DNA of 64,000 nucleotides from Escherichia coli (GTDB lineage: Bacteria; Pseudomonadota; Gammaproteobacteria; Enterobacterales; Enterobacteriaceae), in NCBI RefSeq assembly GCF_003790525.1, contig NZ_CP033635.1; one strand, written 5' to 3'. The notes under the pieces are model-generated. The model worked only from the letters and a program-made list of their open reading frames with translations. It was not told the DNA's origin and did no database searches. Each line of letters starts with the position of its first letter. Positions within the stretch are counted from its first letter, which is position 1. The position numbers and the translations under genes were made by a program. Positions 431-22,584 of the stretch are shown one piece after another.

Positions 431-2581
431 TTAACGCCGCCGACGGCGTGGGGATTTCGTTTTTTCTTTCTTTTTAACTATACCTTCAGGGACTTCCGGT
501 TGCTCTATCGGAAATACCGGTAATGCATCCAGTAGCCGCTTGCCGTAGTTTTTGGTGAGCAAGCGTTTATCGTAAATCACCACTTCGCCCCAGCAACCGT
601 GGCTTCGAATCAGTCGCCCAACCTGCTGAATCAGGTTAAACGAGGCGCTCGGCAGGCTTTGCACCTCAAACGGATAGCGGTTGAGGCTTTTCAGCCATTC
701 CCCTTCGGTGATCACCACGGGGCTGTCGATGGGCGGAAAAGCGATTTTGTGGATATGCACCTGGCTGAGCAGATCGCCTTTCAGATCAAGCCCTTCGGCA
801 AATGACTGTAAGCCCACCAGCACGCTGCGCTCACCGTTGGCGACGCGTTTGCGGTGCAGTTCAACTAAACGGTAACGCGGCTGATCGCCCTGCACCAGCA
901 ACATCAGACGTAAATCCGTCACATAGTCGAGAAAGCGCTGCATCGCCCGTCCGCTGGCAAACAGTACCAACATACCGAGATGTTTTTTGCTCTCCACCTG
1001 CTTACGGAAAAAGGCCGCCATTTCGGCAATATGCTGCTCTTCGTTGTCGAGGGAAGGCTCAACGCGCATCCGGGGAATAACAATTTTGCCCTGTTCGCAG
1101 TGGTTAAAGGGGGAATCCAGCGCCACAAAACGGTCGCCCGCTTTCTCTTTCAGCCCACTCATCTCCTGCAAACGCGAAAAACTGTTCAGCGAACGCAAGG
1201 TTGCGGAGGTAACAATAATGTGCGGAATACTGCGCCACAGCAGCCTTTCCAGTTGGTCGCTAACACGAATACCCACACAGTGAAACCAGAGATGCAGCTG
1301 CCCTTCGCGCTCTTCCCGCGTCGCCCATTTGGTCACCGGCGCACCGGAAGATTGCGCCAGAGACGCCAGCCGCCAGAGTTTGCTTTGCGCCTCGAACATC
1401 CCCAACGCGCGGTTCATCTGCAAAATCAACCGATGCAGGCGTACAATGTCATGGCTGCCGGTTTTCTCACTTAAATCGTTAAGAAATAACTCCGCCAGGC
1501 CACGCAGCATCTCGGTGAGTTTTGCCAGCCGCTGGCAGATCTCCAGTACTTCATCAGGCAGTTCGCCCATCGCAAAACGGTGCTCTGCCTCCTGCCCGGC
1601 AGGCATGTAGAGGTTGAGAATGTTGTTTAACGAGGCGATAAGCTCATACAACTCTTCACAATGGGCATTCAAACGTTCAGGGATCGCCAGCGGCGGGATG
1701 GTCTTCGGGCGAAACTGCTCCATGCAGGTAGCGACCAGTTTCGTGAACAAGTCCAGCTGTAGCCGATACCACGGTGCGGTGATTTCTGCACTCATCTCCA
1801 GCGCATCCCGCGCCACATCCGGCAGGTGATGACCTTCGTCCAGCACCAGCAGTAAATTTTTCGGGTCAGGCAATACGGCTTCGCTTTCCATCGCCGCCAT
1901 CACCAGCGCATGGTTTGCCACCACCACTTCCGCTTCCTGAATCTCCCGACGAGCGACAAAAAACGGGCATTCGCGATAGTAATAACAGTTGCGGTTAAGG
2001 CAACTGGCCTTGTCGGTGCTCAAACGACGCCAGAGATCGTCATCTATAGCGATATCAGTATGATCACGCAGACCATCCCATTTATAAGTGTCGAGATCGC
2101 CCTTCAGCTTCGCACAACGTTTTTGTTCTTCCTGATTGTTCGGCGTCAGTTCGTCGTCAAGAAACGCCAGCAAATCCTGTTGCGTGGGTTCAGTGCTGGC
2201 GAGCGCCGTCAGATTACGCGGACAAACGTAGCGCCCACGCCCAAAAGCGGCAGTGAATTTAAGATCGGGAATGATCTTTTTCAGCAGCGGTAAATCTTTA
2301 CTGTAGATCTGATCCTGCAATGCCACGTTGGCGGTACTCACCACCAGCGTTTTTTGCTCTTCGCGGGCAATGGCGATGCCAGGGATCAAATAGGAGAGCG
2401 TTTTCCCAACGCCAGTGGGGGCTTCAATCGCCAGATGCCGCCCTTCTTCTCCGGCCAGCGTTTTGGCGACGTCCGCAATCATCTGCCGCTGCGGCGCACG
2501 GGGAATAAAGTCGGGGATCTGTTCCTGAAGCGCCTTATACCAGGCGGCAATTTGCGCTTTAAGCGCGGCGGTTAATGCCAT
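431..2581 (-). CDS. dinG: ATP-dependent DNA helicase DinG (716 aa)
   Basis: ORF track 716 aa, MALTAALKAQIAAWYKALQEQ...; length and sequence match recalled DinG; LexA box upstream. Confidence 0.97.
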   Translation of the reverse strand: MALTAALKAQIAAWYKALQEQIPDFIPRAPQRQMIADVAKTLAGEEGRHLAIEAPTGVGKTLSYLIPGIAIAREEQKTLVVSTANVALQDQIYSKDLPLLKKIIPDLKFTAAFGRGRYVCPRNLTALASTEPTQQDLLAFLDDELTPNNQEEQKRCAKLKGDLDTYKWDGLRDHTDIAIDDDLWRRLSTDKASCLNRNCYYYRECPFFVARREIQEAEVVVANHALVMAAMESEAVLPDPKNLLLVLDEGHHLPDVARDALEMSAEITAPWYRLQLDLFTKLVATCMEQFRPKTIPPLAIPERLNAHCEELYELIASLNNILNLYMPAGQEAEHRFAMGELPDEVLEICQRLAKLTEMLRGLAELFLNDLSEKTGSHDIVRLHRLILQMNRALGMFEAQSKLWRLASLAQSSGAPVTKWATREEREGQLHLWFHCVGIRVSDQLERLLWRSIPHIIVTSATLRSLNSFSRLQEMSGLKEKAGDRFVALDSPFNHCEQGKIVIPRMRVEPSLDNEEQHIAEMAAFFRKQVESKKHLGMLVLFASGRAMQRFLDYVTDLRLMLLVQGDQPRYRLVELHRKRVANGERSVLVGLQSFAEGLDLKGDLLSQVHIHKIAFPPIDSPVVITEGEWLKSLNRYPFEVQSLPSASFNLIQQVGRLIRSHGCWGEVVIYDKRLLTKNYGKRLLDALPVFPIEQPEVPEGIVKKKEKTKSPRRRRR

Positions 2582-2593
2582 GAGAAAACCTGA

Positions 2594-2613
2594 AATACTG
2601 TATAAACAGCCAA
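2594..2613 (-). promoter_or_regulatory. LexA box (CTG-N10-CAG type, CTGTTTATACAG on the coding strand) in the dinG promoter
   Basis: aatactgtataaacagccaa about 15 nt upstream of the dinG ATG; matches SOS-box consensus. Confidence 0.6.
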
Positions 2614-2751
2614 TATTGTGGCATTTTTCGGTTTTCAGGGGTAATGGTTTTTCTGTTTCTGGAAAGCGGCTCGCAATAACGTTTTCTGGCTGTGGGGTTT
2701 TCTCGCAACAGAAGAAACATCATTGCGTAGTAAAAGACAATGCACGCAGGC

Positions 2752-3033
2752 TTATTGCGCTGGTGGCCATTGCAGGGCGGTATGTAAAACACGCAGTACC
2801 GAGAGCGTATCGCCCTCCACTTGGTAGATCAGCACATAATGCGGCCTGACAACGGCTTCATGTGTACCAGCGACTCGTCCGGCCCGGTACATCTCCGGGC
2901 GTTCACAGGCCTGTTCCGCAATGGCTTCAAATTGATTATCAAGGGCTATTGCCGCTAGCGGATTATCTTTACTGATGTATTCCATGATTTGCTCCCTGTC
3001 AGACAGGGACATTGGCTTCCATTCCAGACGCAT
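2752..3033 (-). CDS. Type II toxin, ParE/RelE superfamily (93 aa)
   Basis: MRLEWKPMSLSDREQIMEYISKDNPLAAIA...HYVLIYQVEGDTLSVLRVLHTALQWP has the length and conserved pattern of ParE/RelE toxins; its ATG overlaps the stop of the upstream ORF by 1 nt (TAATG). Confidence 0.8.
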   Translation of the reverse strand: MRLEWKPMSLSDREQIMEYISKDNPLAAIALDNQFEAIAEQACERPEMYRAGRVAGTHEAVVRPHYVLIYQVEGDTLSVLRVLHTALQWPPAQ

Positions 3034-3473
3034 TAATCCCCCTTCAGCAAGGCTTTTTTACGGGCAGCAAATAGACTTTTGGCCTCTTCATGAGAGAGCG
3101 CCGGGCGTGGATCGTCAATGGCGGCCTGTACCTGTTCACGAAACCAGGCGTCATACGCGGCAGCTTCATGAGCTCGTTTTAATGCCTCTGCCCTGTCTGG
3201 TCGGGTCGTTTTCTTCTGACCGTCCGGGTCGTAATGAGAGGCGTCGACTTCAAACCGGGCAATACCAACATCTTTCAGGTAGTTGACAACCGTTTCCAGC
3301 CGTTTAAACAAGCGAATTTGCCGACTGCGTTGTGCTGCAAGAGGCCGTTCAGTGTGGCCGTATTTCACGGTCAACGACCAGCCTCCCTGGGTGCCAATAA
3401 CGTGTGCTGCATCCACTACGCCAGATTCAACCAGTTTATGTAAGGTTGAGTGATCGATCGTTTCTGGTGCCAT
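3033..3473 (-). CDS. Putative cognate antitoxin (146 aa) with a ParD/PaaA2-like C-terminal tail and an unassigned N-terminal domain
   Basis: ATG start with AAGAGG ribosome-binding site 8 nt upstream; C-terminal ...YDAWFREQVQAAIDDPRPALSHEEAKSLFAARKKALLKGD resembles the W-x-R...DPRPA tail of ParD/PaaA2-type antitoxins (from memory); translationally coupled to the toxin. Confidence 0.65.
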   Translation of the reverse strand: MAPETIDHSTLHKLVESGVVDAAHVIGTQGGWSLTVKYGHTERPLAAQRSRQIRLFKRLETVVNYLKDVGIARFEVDASHYDPDGQKKTTRPDRAEALKRAHEAAAYDAWFREQVQAAIDDPRPALSHEEAKSLFAARKKALLKGD

Positions 3474-3501
3474 AATGCGCTAACCTCTTTGTATACGGCA
3501 T

Positions 3502-3563
3502 GCAATTTATAATTAAAGATAGCGCAATTAATAATAAATTGCAGCACCTTAATCGTAAATTGC
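3502..3563 (-). promoter_or_regulatory. Putative promoter/operator of the toxin-antitoxin cassette: repeated GCAATT/AATTGC hexamers and a 13-bp imperfect inverted repeat
   Basis: gcaatttataatt (3502-3514) pairs 12/13 with aataataaattgc (3530-3542); further GCAATT at 3524-3529 and AATTGC at 3558-3563; AT-rich; 30-90 nt upstream of the antitoxin ATG. Confidence 0.45.
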
Positions 3564-3604
3564 CCAGGATAAAATTGCGGTAGAAAGAGATTTGTTGCGA
3601 ATAT

Positions 3605-3621
3605 GCCGGGCATCGCCCGGC
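3605..3621 (-). terminator. Hairpin just downstream of rhlE stop (7-bp GC stem, 3-nt loop); possible terminator
   Basis: gccgggc-atc-gcccggc located 9 nt after the rhlE stop codon; no strong U-tract. Confidence 0.35.
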
Positions 3622-3629
3622 ATAAAAGA

Positions 3630-4994
3630 TTACTGCGCAGCGGCAGGTTTACGCGGACGGCGACGGCGTTGTTGTTCGCCTGCCGGTTTGGCATCACCAA
3701 GACGACGAGATGTTTTTTCTGCGGGCTTCGCGCTAGCTGATTTCGCACCACCTTCTCCACGGCGTGGTTGCTGTTGACCGCGACCACCACCTTGCCCACG
3801 ACCGCCGCCGCCACGTTGCTGGCGACCGTTCTGGATCGGTTCGGCTTTGATTGACGGGTCCGGCTCATAACCCGGAATCGCAATGCGCGGGATCTCTTTT
3901 TTCAGCAGTTTTTCGATATCACGCAGCAGTTTGTGTTCATCAACACACACCAGCGACAACGCTTCACCGGTAGCAGCCGCACGACCGGTACGCCCGATAC
4001 GGTGGACATAATCTTCCGGTACGTTTGGCAGTTCATAGTTGACCACGTGCGGCAGCTCTTCAATATCCAGGCCGCGCGCAGCGATGTCAGTTGCCACCAG
4101 TACACGAATATCGCCCGATTTAAAATCAGCCAGCGCACGGGTACGCGCACCTTGCGATTTATTGCCGTGGATCGCCGCACTGCGGATGCCATCTTTATTA
4201 AGCTGTTCAGCCAGATGGTTAGCGCCATGTTTGGTACGGGTAAACACCAGCACCTGCTGCCAGTTCCCTTTCCCAATCATATGCGACAGCAATTCGCGTT
4301 TGCGTTTCTTATCGACAAAGTGAACGTGCTGGGTCACCTGATCAGACGCAGTATTGCGGCGTGCCACTTCGATTTCCAGCGGGTTGTGCAACAGTTTTTC
4401 CGCCAGGGCTTTAATATCGTCAGAGAAGGTCGCGGAGAACAACAGGTTCTGGCGCTTCGCTGGCAGTTTTGTTAACACGCGACGGATATCGTGGATAAAG
4501 CCCATGTCGAGCATGCGGTCAGCTTCATCAAGGACGAGGATTTCAACCTGATCCAGCTTCACTGCATTTTGATGTTCCAGGTCCAGCAGACGTCCCGGCG
4601 TTGCCACCAGCACATCAACGCCGCCGCGCAACTTCATCATTTGTGGGTTAATGCTGACACCGCCAAACACCACCAGCGAACGAATGTTCAGGTATTTGCT
4701 GTAATCACGGACGTTTTCGCCAATCTGCGCCGCCAGTTCACGGGTCGGGGTAAGAATGAGCGCACGTACCGGACGACGCCCTTTGGCGTGCGGCTGGCGA
4801 GTGATCAGGTGTTGCAACAGCGGCAGCGTAAAGCCCGCTGTTTTGCCGGTGCCGGTCTGGGCGCTGGCCATCAGGTCGCGGCCTTCCAACACCGCAGGGA
4901 TCGCCTGCTGCTGAATAGGGGTGGGTTCACGGTAACCCTGCTCGGCAACGGCGCGCAGGATATCAGGGCTTAAACCCAAAGAATCGAAAGACAT
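3630..4994 (-). CDS. rhlE: ATP-dependent RNA helicase RhlE (DEAD-box, 454 aa)
   Basis: ORF track 454 aa, [33 protein letters not shown]..., Gly/Arg-rich C-terminus. Confidence 0.96.
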
Positions 4995-22188: not shown

Positions 22189-22264
22189 GAGTCGCTACCT
22201 GAAGGAGTTGGGCGGGCAGGTATGTAATTTTACTCGTCGTACTTAATTATGCCAACAAATTATA

Positions 22265-22280
22265 CTGGATAAAAAAACAG
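22265..22280 (-). promoter_or_regulatory. LexA box of the uvrB promoter (CTGTTTTTTTATCCAG)
   Basis: ctggataaaaaaacag on the top strand, about 80 nt upstream of uvrB ATG, next to TATAAT-like sequence. Confidence 0.65.
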
Positions 22281-22584
22281 TTTCTCACCATAATATTTCT
22301 GTTACAGCGTAAACTCCGCTGTCAATCATGAGCAAAATTTACTCTGTGGCGAGATAAAACTCCGGCCTTACCGGGTTATCCCCAAAGCAACGGCTTTTTT
22401 AACATTTGTCAAGATGATTGATGACAGTTTTATGGCAAGAGATGCCTGTTCAGTGACTGCCATTGCAATTATCTAACCTGTTAAAAAATAAAAAATATTT
22501 CTTTGAGCCGTCTTTAACGCCAATTCGCGTGCAAGCCGCGTATTCTCTCGCTTGCCTCGTGTTTTCTAACTCTAATACACATGG

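Follow-up and report, generated by a model that had tools for sequence, protein, structure and literature searches.

A two-gene ParE/PaaA2 toxin-antitoxin cassette with a ParC-like antitoxin domain in the polymorphic rhlE-dinG gap of Escherichia coli

The paaR2-paaA2-parE2 system of E. coli O157:H7 (Hallez et al. 2010; Sterckx et al. 2016; PDB 5cw7, 3zbe) provides the closest solved relative of the toxin described here. It is a three-gene, prophage-borne system in which the regulator, PaaR, is a protein of its own and the antitoxin, PaaA2, has 63 aa and no DNA-binding domain, and its ParE2, the nearest characterised toxin, was reported to show no GyrA interaction. Classical parDE systems (plasmid RK2, Vibrio cholerae ParDE2, Caulobacter ParDE1, and M. 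tuberculosis ParDE1) are two-gene operons with the antitoxin gene first; their ParD antitoxins possess a ribbon-helix-helix (RHH) DNA-binding domain, and gyrase poisoning has been shown for their toxins. A separate group of K-12 toxin-antitoxin (TA) loci is linked to the SOS response, namely the dinB-yafN-yafO-yafP operon, dinJ-yafQ, tisB/istR, and symE/symR, and these loci sit behind a LexA box or carry one. The partition-associated ParC family (NF041544; PF28031) is a further relative, through the N-terminal part of the antitoxin.

The window analysed here, a 64,000-nucleotide stretch of E. coli DNA (contig NZ_CP033635.1), carries on its minus strand rhlE, an antitoxin gene, a toxin gene, the dinG LexA box, dinG, and ybiB in this order (Table 1), and rhlE, antitoxin, toxin, and dinG are all co-directional. 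The same gene order and coordinates had been given in an earlier sequence-only reading and are correct according to the list of open reading frames (ORFs) and the 100% identical record NZ_CP029747.1; the ORF list holds no ORF in 3474-3629, between rhlE and the antitoxin gene. The segment 2681-3602 is very probably a horizontally acquired, self-contained two-gene type II ParE/PaaA2 module that replaced ybiA in a minority of E. coli lineages.

Table 1. Features of the rhlE-dinG region (positions in the window)
Feature	Position	Strand	Basis or remark
dinG, ATP-dependent DNA helicase; downstream neighbour	431..2581	-	716-aa ORF; annotated in 100% identical record NZ_CP029747.1
Conserved 99-bp block upstream of dinG, with dinG promoter and operator; outside the cassette	2582..2680	-	sequence comparison
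dinG LexA (SOS) box TACTGTATAAACAGCCAATA	2596..2615	.	consensus scan
dinG promoter candidate: -35 ATGCCA (2624..2619), 16-nt spacer, -10 TACAGT (2602..2597)	2597..2624	-	lenient consensus scan, 8/12
Strain-specific 922-bp segment, the whole cassette, in place of ybiA	2681..3602	-	BLAST junctions against K-12, LF82, and an O157-like strain
Cassette 3' tail, 71 bp, non-coding, poorly conserved	2681..2751	-	allele comparison
Marginal terminator-like hairpin over the toxin stop codon (stem 2773-2737), then CUUUUAC (2736-2730)	2730..2773	-	local fold
ParE-class toxin gene (predicted), 93 aa	2752..3033	-	Pfam ParE_toxin; TIGR02385; family profile against PDB
Antitoxin gene, 146 aa: ParC-like N-terminal domain (~4-83) and PaaA2-like toxin-binding C-terminus (~94-145)	3033..3473	-	Pfam, PDB, NCBIfam, AF2
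Antitoxin Shine-Dalgarno AGAGG, 10 nt before ATG	3484..3488	-	read from sequence
Further GCAATT/AATTGC half-sites around the promoter	3501..3578	.	repeat families D3, D4, I3, I4, I9, I16
Palindromic operator candidate TGCAATTTATTATTAATTGC (TGCAAT-N9-ATTGC)	3524..3543	.	inverted repeat I23/I3
Cassette promoter candidate: -35 TTTACG (3559..3554), 17 nt, -10 TATTAT (3536..3531)	3531..3559	-	best promoter-like site of the region, 9/12
rhlE 3' hairpin	3602..3624	-	10-bp perfect stem (inverted repeat I13); common to K-12 and LF82
rhlE, RNA helicase; upstream neighbour	3630..4994	-	454-aa ORF; rhlE annotation in 100% identical record NZ_CP029747.1

Toxin, antitoxin, and control signals of the cassette

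The toxin matches Pfam ParE_toxin (PF05016) with E=1.2e-13, its residues 3-86 being aligned to positions 1-86 of the 89-position model. When the toxin family profile was compared with PDB, the best match was O157 ParE2 (5cw7; 3e-15) and five other ParE structures came next, including 5ceg (8e-8) and 6x0a (1e-5); the same profile found ParE_SO (9e-4) and Caulobacter ParE1 (6e-3), with ParE structures extending down to E=0.01. These profiles place the toxin in the ParE class and not in the RelE mRNA-interferase class, and the toxin-antitoxin cassette with a ParE-family toxin of the sequence-only reading is borne out as a type II pair. The toxin target is probably DNA topology or gyrase, although the toxin is acidic and its kinship with ParE2 is distant. 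The statement in the same reading that ParE toxins are established gyrase poisons is unsafe to transfer to this protein in view of the O157 ParE2 report.

The antitoxin combines two parts. At the C-terminus it matches Pfam PaaA2 (PF21217; E=4.2e-10) over residues 104-130, the toxin-binding "stability determinant" region, and residues 82-139 match the PaaA2 structure 3zbe (1.9e-4); it also scores just under the cut-off of the NF050103 RelB-family antitoxin equivalog (47.1 vs 50 bits), through residues 102-131 only. At the N-terminus residues 6-83 cover almost all 80 positions of the ParC model NF041544, at 32.7 bits, far under the 95-bit cut-off, and the precomputed Pfam match to ParC-like PF28031 is weak; no RHH or HTH match was obtained for this domain. 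The AF2 model (pLDDT 78) shows an N-terminal alpha/beta domain and two long C-terminal helices.

The homologues of the antitoxin form 895 clusters; with the Pfam matches given above, this puts both ORFs well outside what chance would produce. The combination of a ParC-like domain with a PaaA2 tail is widespread, being found in 832 representative clusters at 50% identity. RefSeq often labels antitoxins of this kind "hypothetical protein", and the literature search returned nothing specific on the cassette, on the antitoxin architecture, or on experiments with this subfamily. Stand-alone 89-aa ParC-like relatives, about 52% identical, occur on small Aeromonas and E. coli plasmids; the TGCAAT palindrome is absent from these genes, which are uninformative on N-terminal DNA binding.

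The candidate promoter of the cassette has its -10 hexamer in the centre of the palindrome. In eight loci from six genera or lineages the bases of the palindrome arms are invariant while the flanks diverge, and the -10 retains TAnnnT in 8/8 aligned loci; additional half-sites are located at -105, -90, -69, -56, and -34 from the antitoxin ATG. The position of the palindrome around the -10 is consistent with a putative autoregulatory operator. As regards translation, the AGAGG preceding the antitoxin gene is kept in enterobacterial homologues, the antitoxin and toxin ORFs overlap as TAATG, and a strong GGGGG Shine-Dalgarno sequence precedes the toxin start. The Rfam scan of 2300-3900 gave as its sole match a sub-threshold miRNA on the AT-rich palindrome, which was rejected as noise.

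In the proposed mechanism the operon would be transcribed from its own sigma-70 promoter, with the antitoxin made first and the toxin translationally coupled to it through the ORF overlap and the upstream Shine-Dalgarno sequence. Like PaaA2 on ParE2, the two C-terminal helices of the antitoxin would wrap around the ParE-fold toxin and neutralise it, and the antitoxin, alone or toxin-bound and presumably via its highly conserved ParC-like N-terminus, would occupy the palindrome and keep transcription of the cassette low; loss or degradation of the antitoxin would leave free toxin to arrest growth. It is fairly likely that in this fusion with a PaaA2-type tail the ParC-like domain represents a new class of antitoxin domain for DNA binding and regulation, which would take the place of PaaR and recognise TGCAAT-N9-ATTGC; as the candidate operator is deeply conserved, such a role in DNA binding is directly testable.

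Polymorphism of the rhlE-dinG gap and relatives of the module

Among 5,426 complete E. coli genomes the cassette is present in 324, in single copy and at this site only, while the same gap holds ybiA in 3,429 and espX2 in 542. At least four alternative fillings exist (ybiA, a ybiA remnant, espX2, and the TA cassette), and the junctions of ybiA, espX2, and the cassette agree within 4 bp on the dinG side. Homology with ybiA-type genomes stops at 2680, and the right junction of the cassette is marked by a conserved flank, the rhlE 3' hairpin. The rhlE-dinG gap is a clean case of a multi-allelic replacement locus in E. coli, and the carriers of the cassette are without the NADAR enzyme YbiA.

Two E. 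coli alleles of the cassette diverge by about 2% of nucleotides in the coding regions, which results in 1-2 amino-acid changes per protein, vs 15 differences in the 71 positions of the 3' tail (21%), the least conserved part of the cassette. The tail shows no homology to plasmid copies, where the match begins near 2760.

Homologous two-gene modules were found on Klebsiella, Salmonella, Yersinia, and Rhizobium plasmids and on other chromosomes, the plasmid copies numbering 13 at the DNA level and 232 at the protein level, with IS elements, colicin genes, and others as neighbours; none of the loci examined outside E. coli had the module as a neighbour of dinG. The order of a ParC-like+PaaA2 gene followed by a PF05016 toxin gene also occurs in Xenorhabdus, in an ENA genome, and in a betaproteobacterial MAG. 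In total the pairing is kept in three plasmids and three other chromosomal lineages, the Xenorhabdus toxin gene being truncated to 49 aa. The cassette is of plasmid origin and an ordinary mobile type II module.

The dinG control region, read-through, and alternative explanations

The 99-bp block upstream of dinG is identical to that of K-12/C600, of LF82, and of the second TA allele. Its LexA box, TACTGTATAAACAGCCAATA, is the reverse complement of TATTGGCTGTTTATACAGTA, agrees with the consensus at 15/20 positions with one core mismatch, is joint best in the 64-kb window with the uvrB box, and overlaps the candidate dinG promoter; this sequence is given as the dinG SOS motif in PMC3009722. It is the sole LexA match in 2300-3800, with none in or upstream of the cassette. 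With no box of its own, and with the dinG box situated downstream of it, the cassette is not predicted to come under SOS control.

The hairpin that covers the toxin stop codon (UAA, 2754-2752) is interrupted, has 14 pairs, and folds at -12.6 kcal/mol; the terminator scan flagged a 5-pair version of it, and the whole scan returned three terminator-like sites vs 2.7 expected by chance. In the commoner E. coli cassette allele (allele B, locus L008) the hairpin is destroyed. The earlier remark that no convincing terminator separates the toxin from dinG holds in so far as no strong one is present, and it has to be amended for the window, where this marginal hairpin and its CUUUUAC run are found. 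Since the terminator is marginal and not kept in the commoner allele, read-through from the toxin into dinG may be possible. In the untranslated gap of 170 nt C is abundant and G scarce, with C/G reaching 2.09; the window as a whole has a median of 1.0, and its 95th percentile is 1.71. It is considered that dinG would receive at most little read-through, from a normally repressed promoter, and keeps its own LexA-controlled promoter.

Two structural candidates in this interval were rejected. The 209-nt toxin-dinG interval has a fold z-score of -2.67, but the fold is not conserved between alleles. Pairing of the tail with the dinG leader (inverted repeats I1, I6, and I15, with a 9-nt perfect match just before the dinG ATG) was discarded because approximately one such 9-mer is expected by chance and the tail positions differ between alleles.

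Functional coupling of the cassette to its neighbour, either by read-through from the TA promoter or from rhlE into dinG, or by freed toxin that poisons gyrase and so leads to SOS and to dinG induction, or by both, is very unlikely. The co-directional genes, the weakness and allelic loss of the only terminator candidate after the toxin, and the induction of SOS by several ParE toxins (review PMC10886550) speak for it; however, the module is found in many unrelated contexts, other strains have ybiA or espX2 in the same gap, and the 3' tail, the would-be carrier of a coupling signal, is the part that diverges most. No change is seen in the promoter and operator of dinG, autorepression of the TA promoter is expected, and the C-rich, G-poor gap could support Rho-dependent termination. 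As to the toxin, the gyrase/SOS argument is weakened because its closest studied relative, O157 ParE2, was reported not to bind GyrA, and an SOS response set off by any toxin would induce dinG irrespective of where the gene for that toxin is located. The link with dinG and SOS raised in the sequence-only reading is unsupported, given a mobile module with unrelated neighbours, a gap with alternative fillings, a cassette free of LexA boxes, and a dinG control region that is base-for-base that of K-12; the place beside dinG is best read as an accident of insertion at a recombination-prone gap, of little importance for SOS biology. It is likewise unlikely that in the approximately 6% of E. coli with the cassette the loss of the convergent gene ybiA and a weak terminator create a rhlE-TA-dinG-ybiB read-through unit, which, if true, would give dinG a LexA-independent input dependent on the toxin:antitoxin ratio, and such a unit jointly with a new ParC-like antitoxin regulatory class is highly improbable.

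Other readings concern the module itself. A toxin of the RelE/StbE type, acting as a ribosome-dependent mRNA interferase and not as a ParE-type topoisomerase poison, is suggested by 38.3 bits for TIGR02385 RelE_StbE, above the 27.9 cut-off, and by the many RefSeq records named "mRNA interferase toxin, RelE/StbE family". This has a very small probability, as the family profile that collects ParE structures to E=0.01 reaches YafQ/RelE-type interferases only at E~0.7, Pfam YafQ_toxin gives 0.08 vs 1.2e-13 for ParE_toxin, the antitoxin paired with it has the ParE2-binding domain PaaA2, and its pI of 5.25 is acidic, in contrast to the strongly basic RelE toxins that bind the ribosome. Full-length ORFs in the window and in the alleles examined, low coding divergence with so few amino-acid changes, and intact start-stop coupling, Shine-Dalgarno sequences, promoter, and palindrome make it extremely improbable that an old insertion has here decayed to a remnant without function, despite the chromosomal location of the module without mobility genes, its degenerating 3' tail, and the truncated toxin variants of Xenorhabdus nematophila (49 aa) and of some E. 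coli records. A chromosomal role in defence, as abortive infection against phages or as anti-addiction against plasmids with related modules, is compatible with the mobile-module explanation and unlikely: neither protein matches PADLOC defence models and no defence genes are nearby, the neighbours of the cassette being core genes, although plasmids of the same hosts commonly have related modules, phage protein families include relatives of the toxin (phrog_2455, 1e-14), and the O157 system resides in a prophage. In phage records there was just a distant match to the N-terminal domain (36% identity, Burkholderia phages). The cassette is preferably explained as a mobile two-gene module at a replacement locus.

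Comparison with known systems

Like the SOS-linked TA loci of K-12, the cassette physically adjoins an SOS gene; unlike them, it has no LexA box, that of dinG being downstream of it. With the ParC family it shares the N-terminal residues 6-83 of the antitoxin, while in the cassette the ParC-like domain is fused to a predicted toxin-neutralising tail and there are no partition genes near the antitoxin. Classical parDE systems have in common with it the ParE-fold toxin (PF05016), the two-gene operon with the antitoxin first, and plasmid-borne relatives; they differ in the ParD RHH domain, in place of which the cassette antitoxin has an alpha/beta N-terminus, and in the demonstrated gyrase poisoning, which for the cassette subfamily is a prediction.

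The O157 paaR2-paaA2-parE2 system is similar in the toxin, in the antitoxin C-terminus, which matches the PaaA2 toxin-binding region, and in the antitoxin gene preceding the toxin gene, although as single sequences the proteins are only distantly similar (toxin, E=1.2e-6; antitoxin, E=1.9e-4). In place of three components in a prophage, the cassette consists of two genes in a core intergenic gap, with no separate upstream regulator gene and with a 146-aa antitoxin enlarged by a ParC-like domain of about 90 aa.

Gene order and the polymorphic rhlE-dinG gap

The window is chromosomal DNA of E. coli, 100% identical to strain 2016C-3878 over the compared stretch, and the 50-kb surroundings of the toxin-antitoxin (TA) cassette represent ordinary core genome from ybiB to aroG. 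The minus-strand order rhlE, antitoxin, toxin, dinG LexA box, dinG, and ybiB, described in the sequence-only reading, was correct, since the ORF layout, the LexA consensus scan, and the dinG motif tabulated in PMC3009722, which is the same sequence as the box at this locus, agree. In the scan of the whole window the dinG box and a box upstream of uvrB ranked top (15/20 each), and no further LexA box was detected in 2300-3800 besides that of dinG. The second site is the known uvrB SOS box and served as the positive control of the scan.

Features of the locus and of the stand-alone relatives of the antitoxin domain (window positions unless a locus is named)
Feature	Position	Strand	Details
dinG	431-2581	-	ybiB comes next
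dinG SOS (LexA) box	2596-2615		TACTGTATAAACAGCCAATA, reverse complement of TATTGGCTGTTTATACAGTA
Candidate dinG promoter			-35 ATGCCA, 16 nt, -10 TACAGT; brackets the LexA box
Cassette 3' tail	2681-2751		71 bp
Interrupted hairpin past the toxin stop codon	2773-2737		-12.6 kcal/mol, then CUUUUAC
Toxin ORF	2752-3033	-	93 aa; overlaps antitoxin ORF as TAATG
Antitoxin ORF	3033-3473	-	146 aa
Palindrome	3543..3524		TGCAATTTATTATTAATTGC; centre holds the cassette -10
Candidate cassette promoter	3559..3531	-	-35 TTTACG (3559..3554), 17-nt spacer, -10 TATTAT (3536..3531)
rhlE 3' hairpin	3602-3624		10-bp perfect GC-rich stem
rhlE	3630-4994	-	ORF
LexA box upstream of uvrB	22263-22282		TACTGGATAAAAAAACAGTT; perfect CTG...CAG core; ~75-93 bp upstream of uvrB
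Stand-alone ParC-like gene	L018 2998-3267		E. coli 5.6-kb ColRNAI plasmid
Stand-alone ParC-like gene	L019 3498-3767		Aeromonas media plasmid

Junction mapping against K-12/C600, LF82, and an O157-like strain showed that the dinG-side homology ended sharply at 2680 (2676 for the O157-like strain) and the rhlE-side homology resumed at 3603 (3629 for the O157-like strain). The 922 haplotype-specific bp sit where ybiA, divergent from dinG, lies in K-12, and the same gap holds a ybiA remnant in LF82 and espX2 in O157-type strains. A survey of 5,426 complete E. coli genomes counted 3,429 with the full ybiA segment in the gap, 542 with espX2, and 324 with the TA cassette, which is without exception single-copy, chromosomal, and located at this site. 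The cassette has two alleles: 66 of the carriers are at least 99% identical to the window in this segment and 258 about 96.3%. The gap is a multi-allelic replacement locus, and the dinG-side breakpoints of all its alleles fall within 4 bp of each other. It contains neither an integrase nor att-like repeats or IS elements, which suggests that the fillings are exchanged through homologous recombination in the core genes on either side, and the mosaic patterns seen in E. coli GF43 (L009) and 980-2 (L010) point to recombination between cassette alleles. A TCGCAA(C) motif occurs in the conserved flank of the left junction (2670-2676), in the cassette tail (2701-2708), and, as reverse complement, at the right junction (3594-3601), and CTCGCAA is present twice at the espX2-type junction (L004); for a 6-7-mer such recurrence may be chance.

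Toxin, antitoxin, and the candidate operator

The identification of a TA pair was supported and could be refined to a ParE_toxin protein with a PaaA2-tailed antitoxin. The toxin, which is acidic (pI 5.25), matched Pfam ParE_toxin (E=1.2e-13), and a PDB search with a profile of 12 family members retrieved the O157 ParE2 structure (3e-15), then five other ParE structures, while RelE/YafQ-type mRNA interferases reached only E of about 0.7; by sequence it is of the ParE class. The inconsistent RefSeq naming of its gene arises because the toxin also exceeds the cut-off of NCBIfam RelE_StbE, which is a broad model.

Antitoxin residues ~94-145 correspond to the PaaA2 "stability determinant" (4.2e-10 in Pfam; also PDB 3zbe) and form two long helices in the AlphaFold model (mean pLDDT 78). 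Residues ~4-83 constitute a compact alpha-beta-beta-beta-alpha-beta domain, labelled ParC-like (PF28031) by precomputed Pfam hits and matching NCBIfam ParC weakly (32.7 bits vs a cut-off of 95). The combination of both domains is common, with 895 clusters when sequences are grouped at 90% identity and 832 representatives at 50%. It is strongly conserved (mean column identity 71% in alignment A1), and a literature search found no paper describing it. Mutually identical stand-alone 89-aa ParC-like proteins, ~52% identical to the antitoxin N-terminal domain, are encoded on small plasmids of E. coli and Aeromonas; at the two genes checked (L018, L019) neither nearby ParA/ParB genes nor the TGCAAT palindrome was found.

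Of the promoter-like sites in the rhlE-antitoxin interval the candidate cassette promoter scored best, and the palindrome across its -10 is surrounded by further GCAATT half-sites. The 100 bp preceding the antitoxin start were aligned for eight loci, namely both E. coli alleles, three plasmids, and the copies of Xenorhabdus, an ENA genome, and a betaproteobacterial MAG. Invariant in 8/8 were the arms of the palindrome (TGC.AT ... TTGC) and, in the -10 hexamer, the A and the final T, while the flanks diverged, and the palindrome thus bears the signature of a candidate operator overlapping a promoter. Mainly because of this conserved palindrome enclosing the -10, we infer that the antitoxin would bind DNA and repress its own operon; DNA binding would likely fall to the N-terminal domain, which is highly conserved and has a basic stretch (AAQRSRQxRLF). 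GF43 has a 21-bp insertion upstream of the antitoxin, at about window position 3547; it is a partial copy of the operator region (TATTAATTGCGCTATCTTTAAT) and adds one AATTGC half-site.

Outside E. coli, too, the unit is made up of a 441-bp and a 282-bp gene that share one base. Plasmids of Klebsiella, Salmonella, and Yersinia carry it at ~70% DNA identity, with neighbours such as IS elements and colicin genes; at the protein level it occurs on 232 plasmids, mostly of Rhizobium, Aeromonas, and Xanthomonas, and chromosomal copies lie in Xenorhabdus, the 4.8-Mb ENA genome, and the betaproteobacterial MAG. Neither dinG nor another SOS gene neighbours these copies in the loci examined. In Xenorhabdus nematophila (L011-L013, 4441-4590) the module is in an orphan-antitoxin state, with a full-length antitoxin next to a toxin gene cut down to 49 aa.

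Transcription towards dinG

Since the 99 bp from the dinG start codon to the junction show 0 differences from K-12, dinG keeps its normal promoter and LexA operator. The earlier remark that no convincing intrinsic terminator separates toxin and dinG holds: the hairpin past the toxin stop codon appears at best a marginal terminator and is destroyed by substitutions in the commoner cassette allele. The 3' tail is the least conserved part of the cassette: the two E. coli alleles differ at 15 of its 71 positions (21%) compared with ~2% in the coding parts (toxin gene 6/282, antitoxin gene 10/441), and nothing in the plasmid copies corresponds to it, which argues against a selected signal there. 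The 170 untranslated nt are rich in C and poor in G on the transcribed strand (C/G up to 2.09; window median 1.0, 95th percentile 1.71), so that Rho-dependent termination is a possibility. Read-through into dinG from the cassette promoter, presumed normally repressed, may be possible; there is no sign that it is selected or important.

Transcription of rhlE could also run into the cassette, because the rhlE 3' hairpin has no U-tract on the rhlE strand, in the window and K-12 alike, and the REP element adjoining it in K-12 is missing from the TA haplotype. Any ybiA promoter in the conserved dinG-ybiA divergent region (2582-2680) would point antisense into the toxin gene, and the ybiA-direction strand of this interval holds no good sigma-70 match (best 8/12).

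The cassette among known systems

A functional link between the cassette and dinG is unsupported and improbable, given the K-12-identical sequence upstream of dinG, the unrelated neighbours elsewhere, and the divergent 3' tail. The argument that ParE toxins poison gyrase and in this way induce SOS is weaker than was stated; SOS induction by the toxin would act on dinG regardless of the position of the toxin gene. The cassette is an ordinary type II module, mobile and already annotated automatically, that occupies a multi-allelic intergenic site; it is mildly novel in its uncharacterised ParC-like/PaaA2 fusion antitoxin and deeply conserved candidate operator and in nothing else.

In K-12 the dinB-yafNOP and dinJ-yafQ loci are SOS-linked TA systems; unlike them, the cassette has no LexA box in the consensus scan. 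With no regulator gene and an extra domain in the antitoxin, it falls outside the three-component paaR-paaA-parE type, and it differs from classical ParDE in the DNA-binding part of the antitoxin. Its closest functional parallel is the PaaA2-ParE2 pair of O157:H7.
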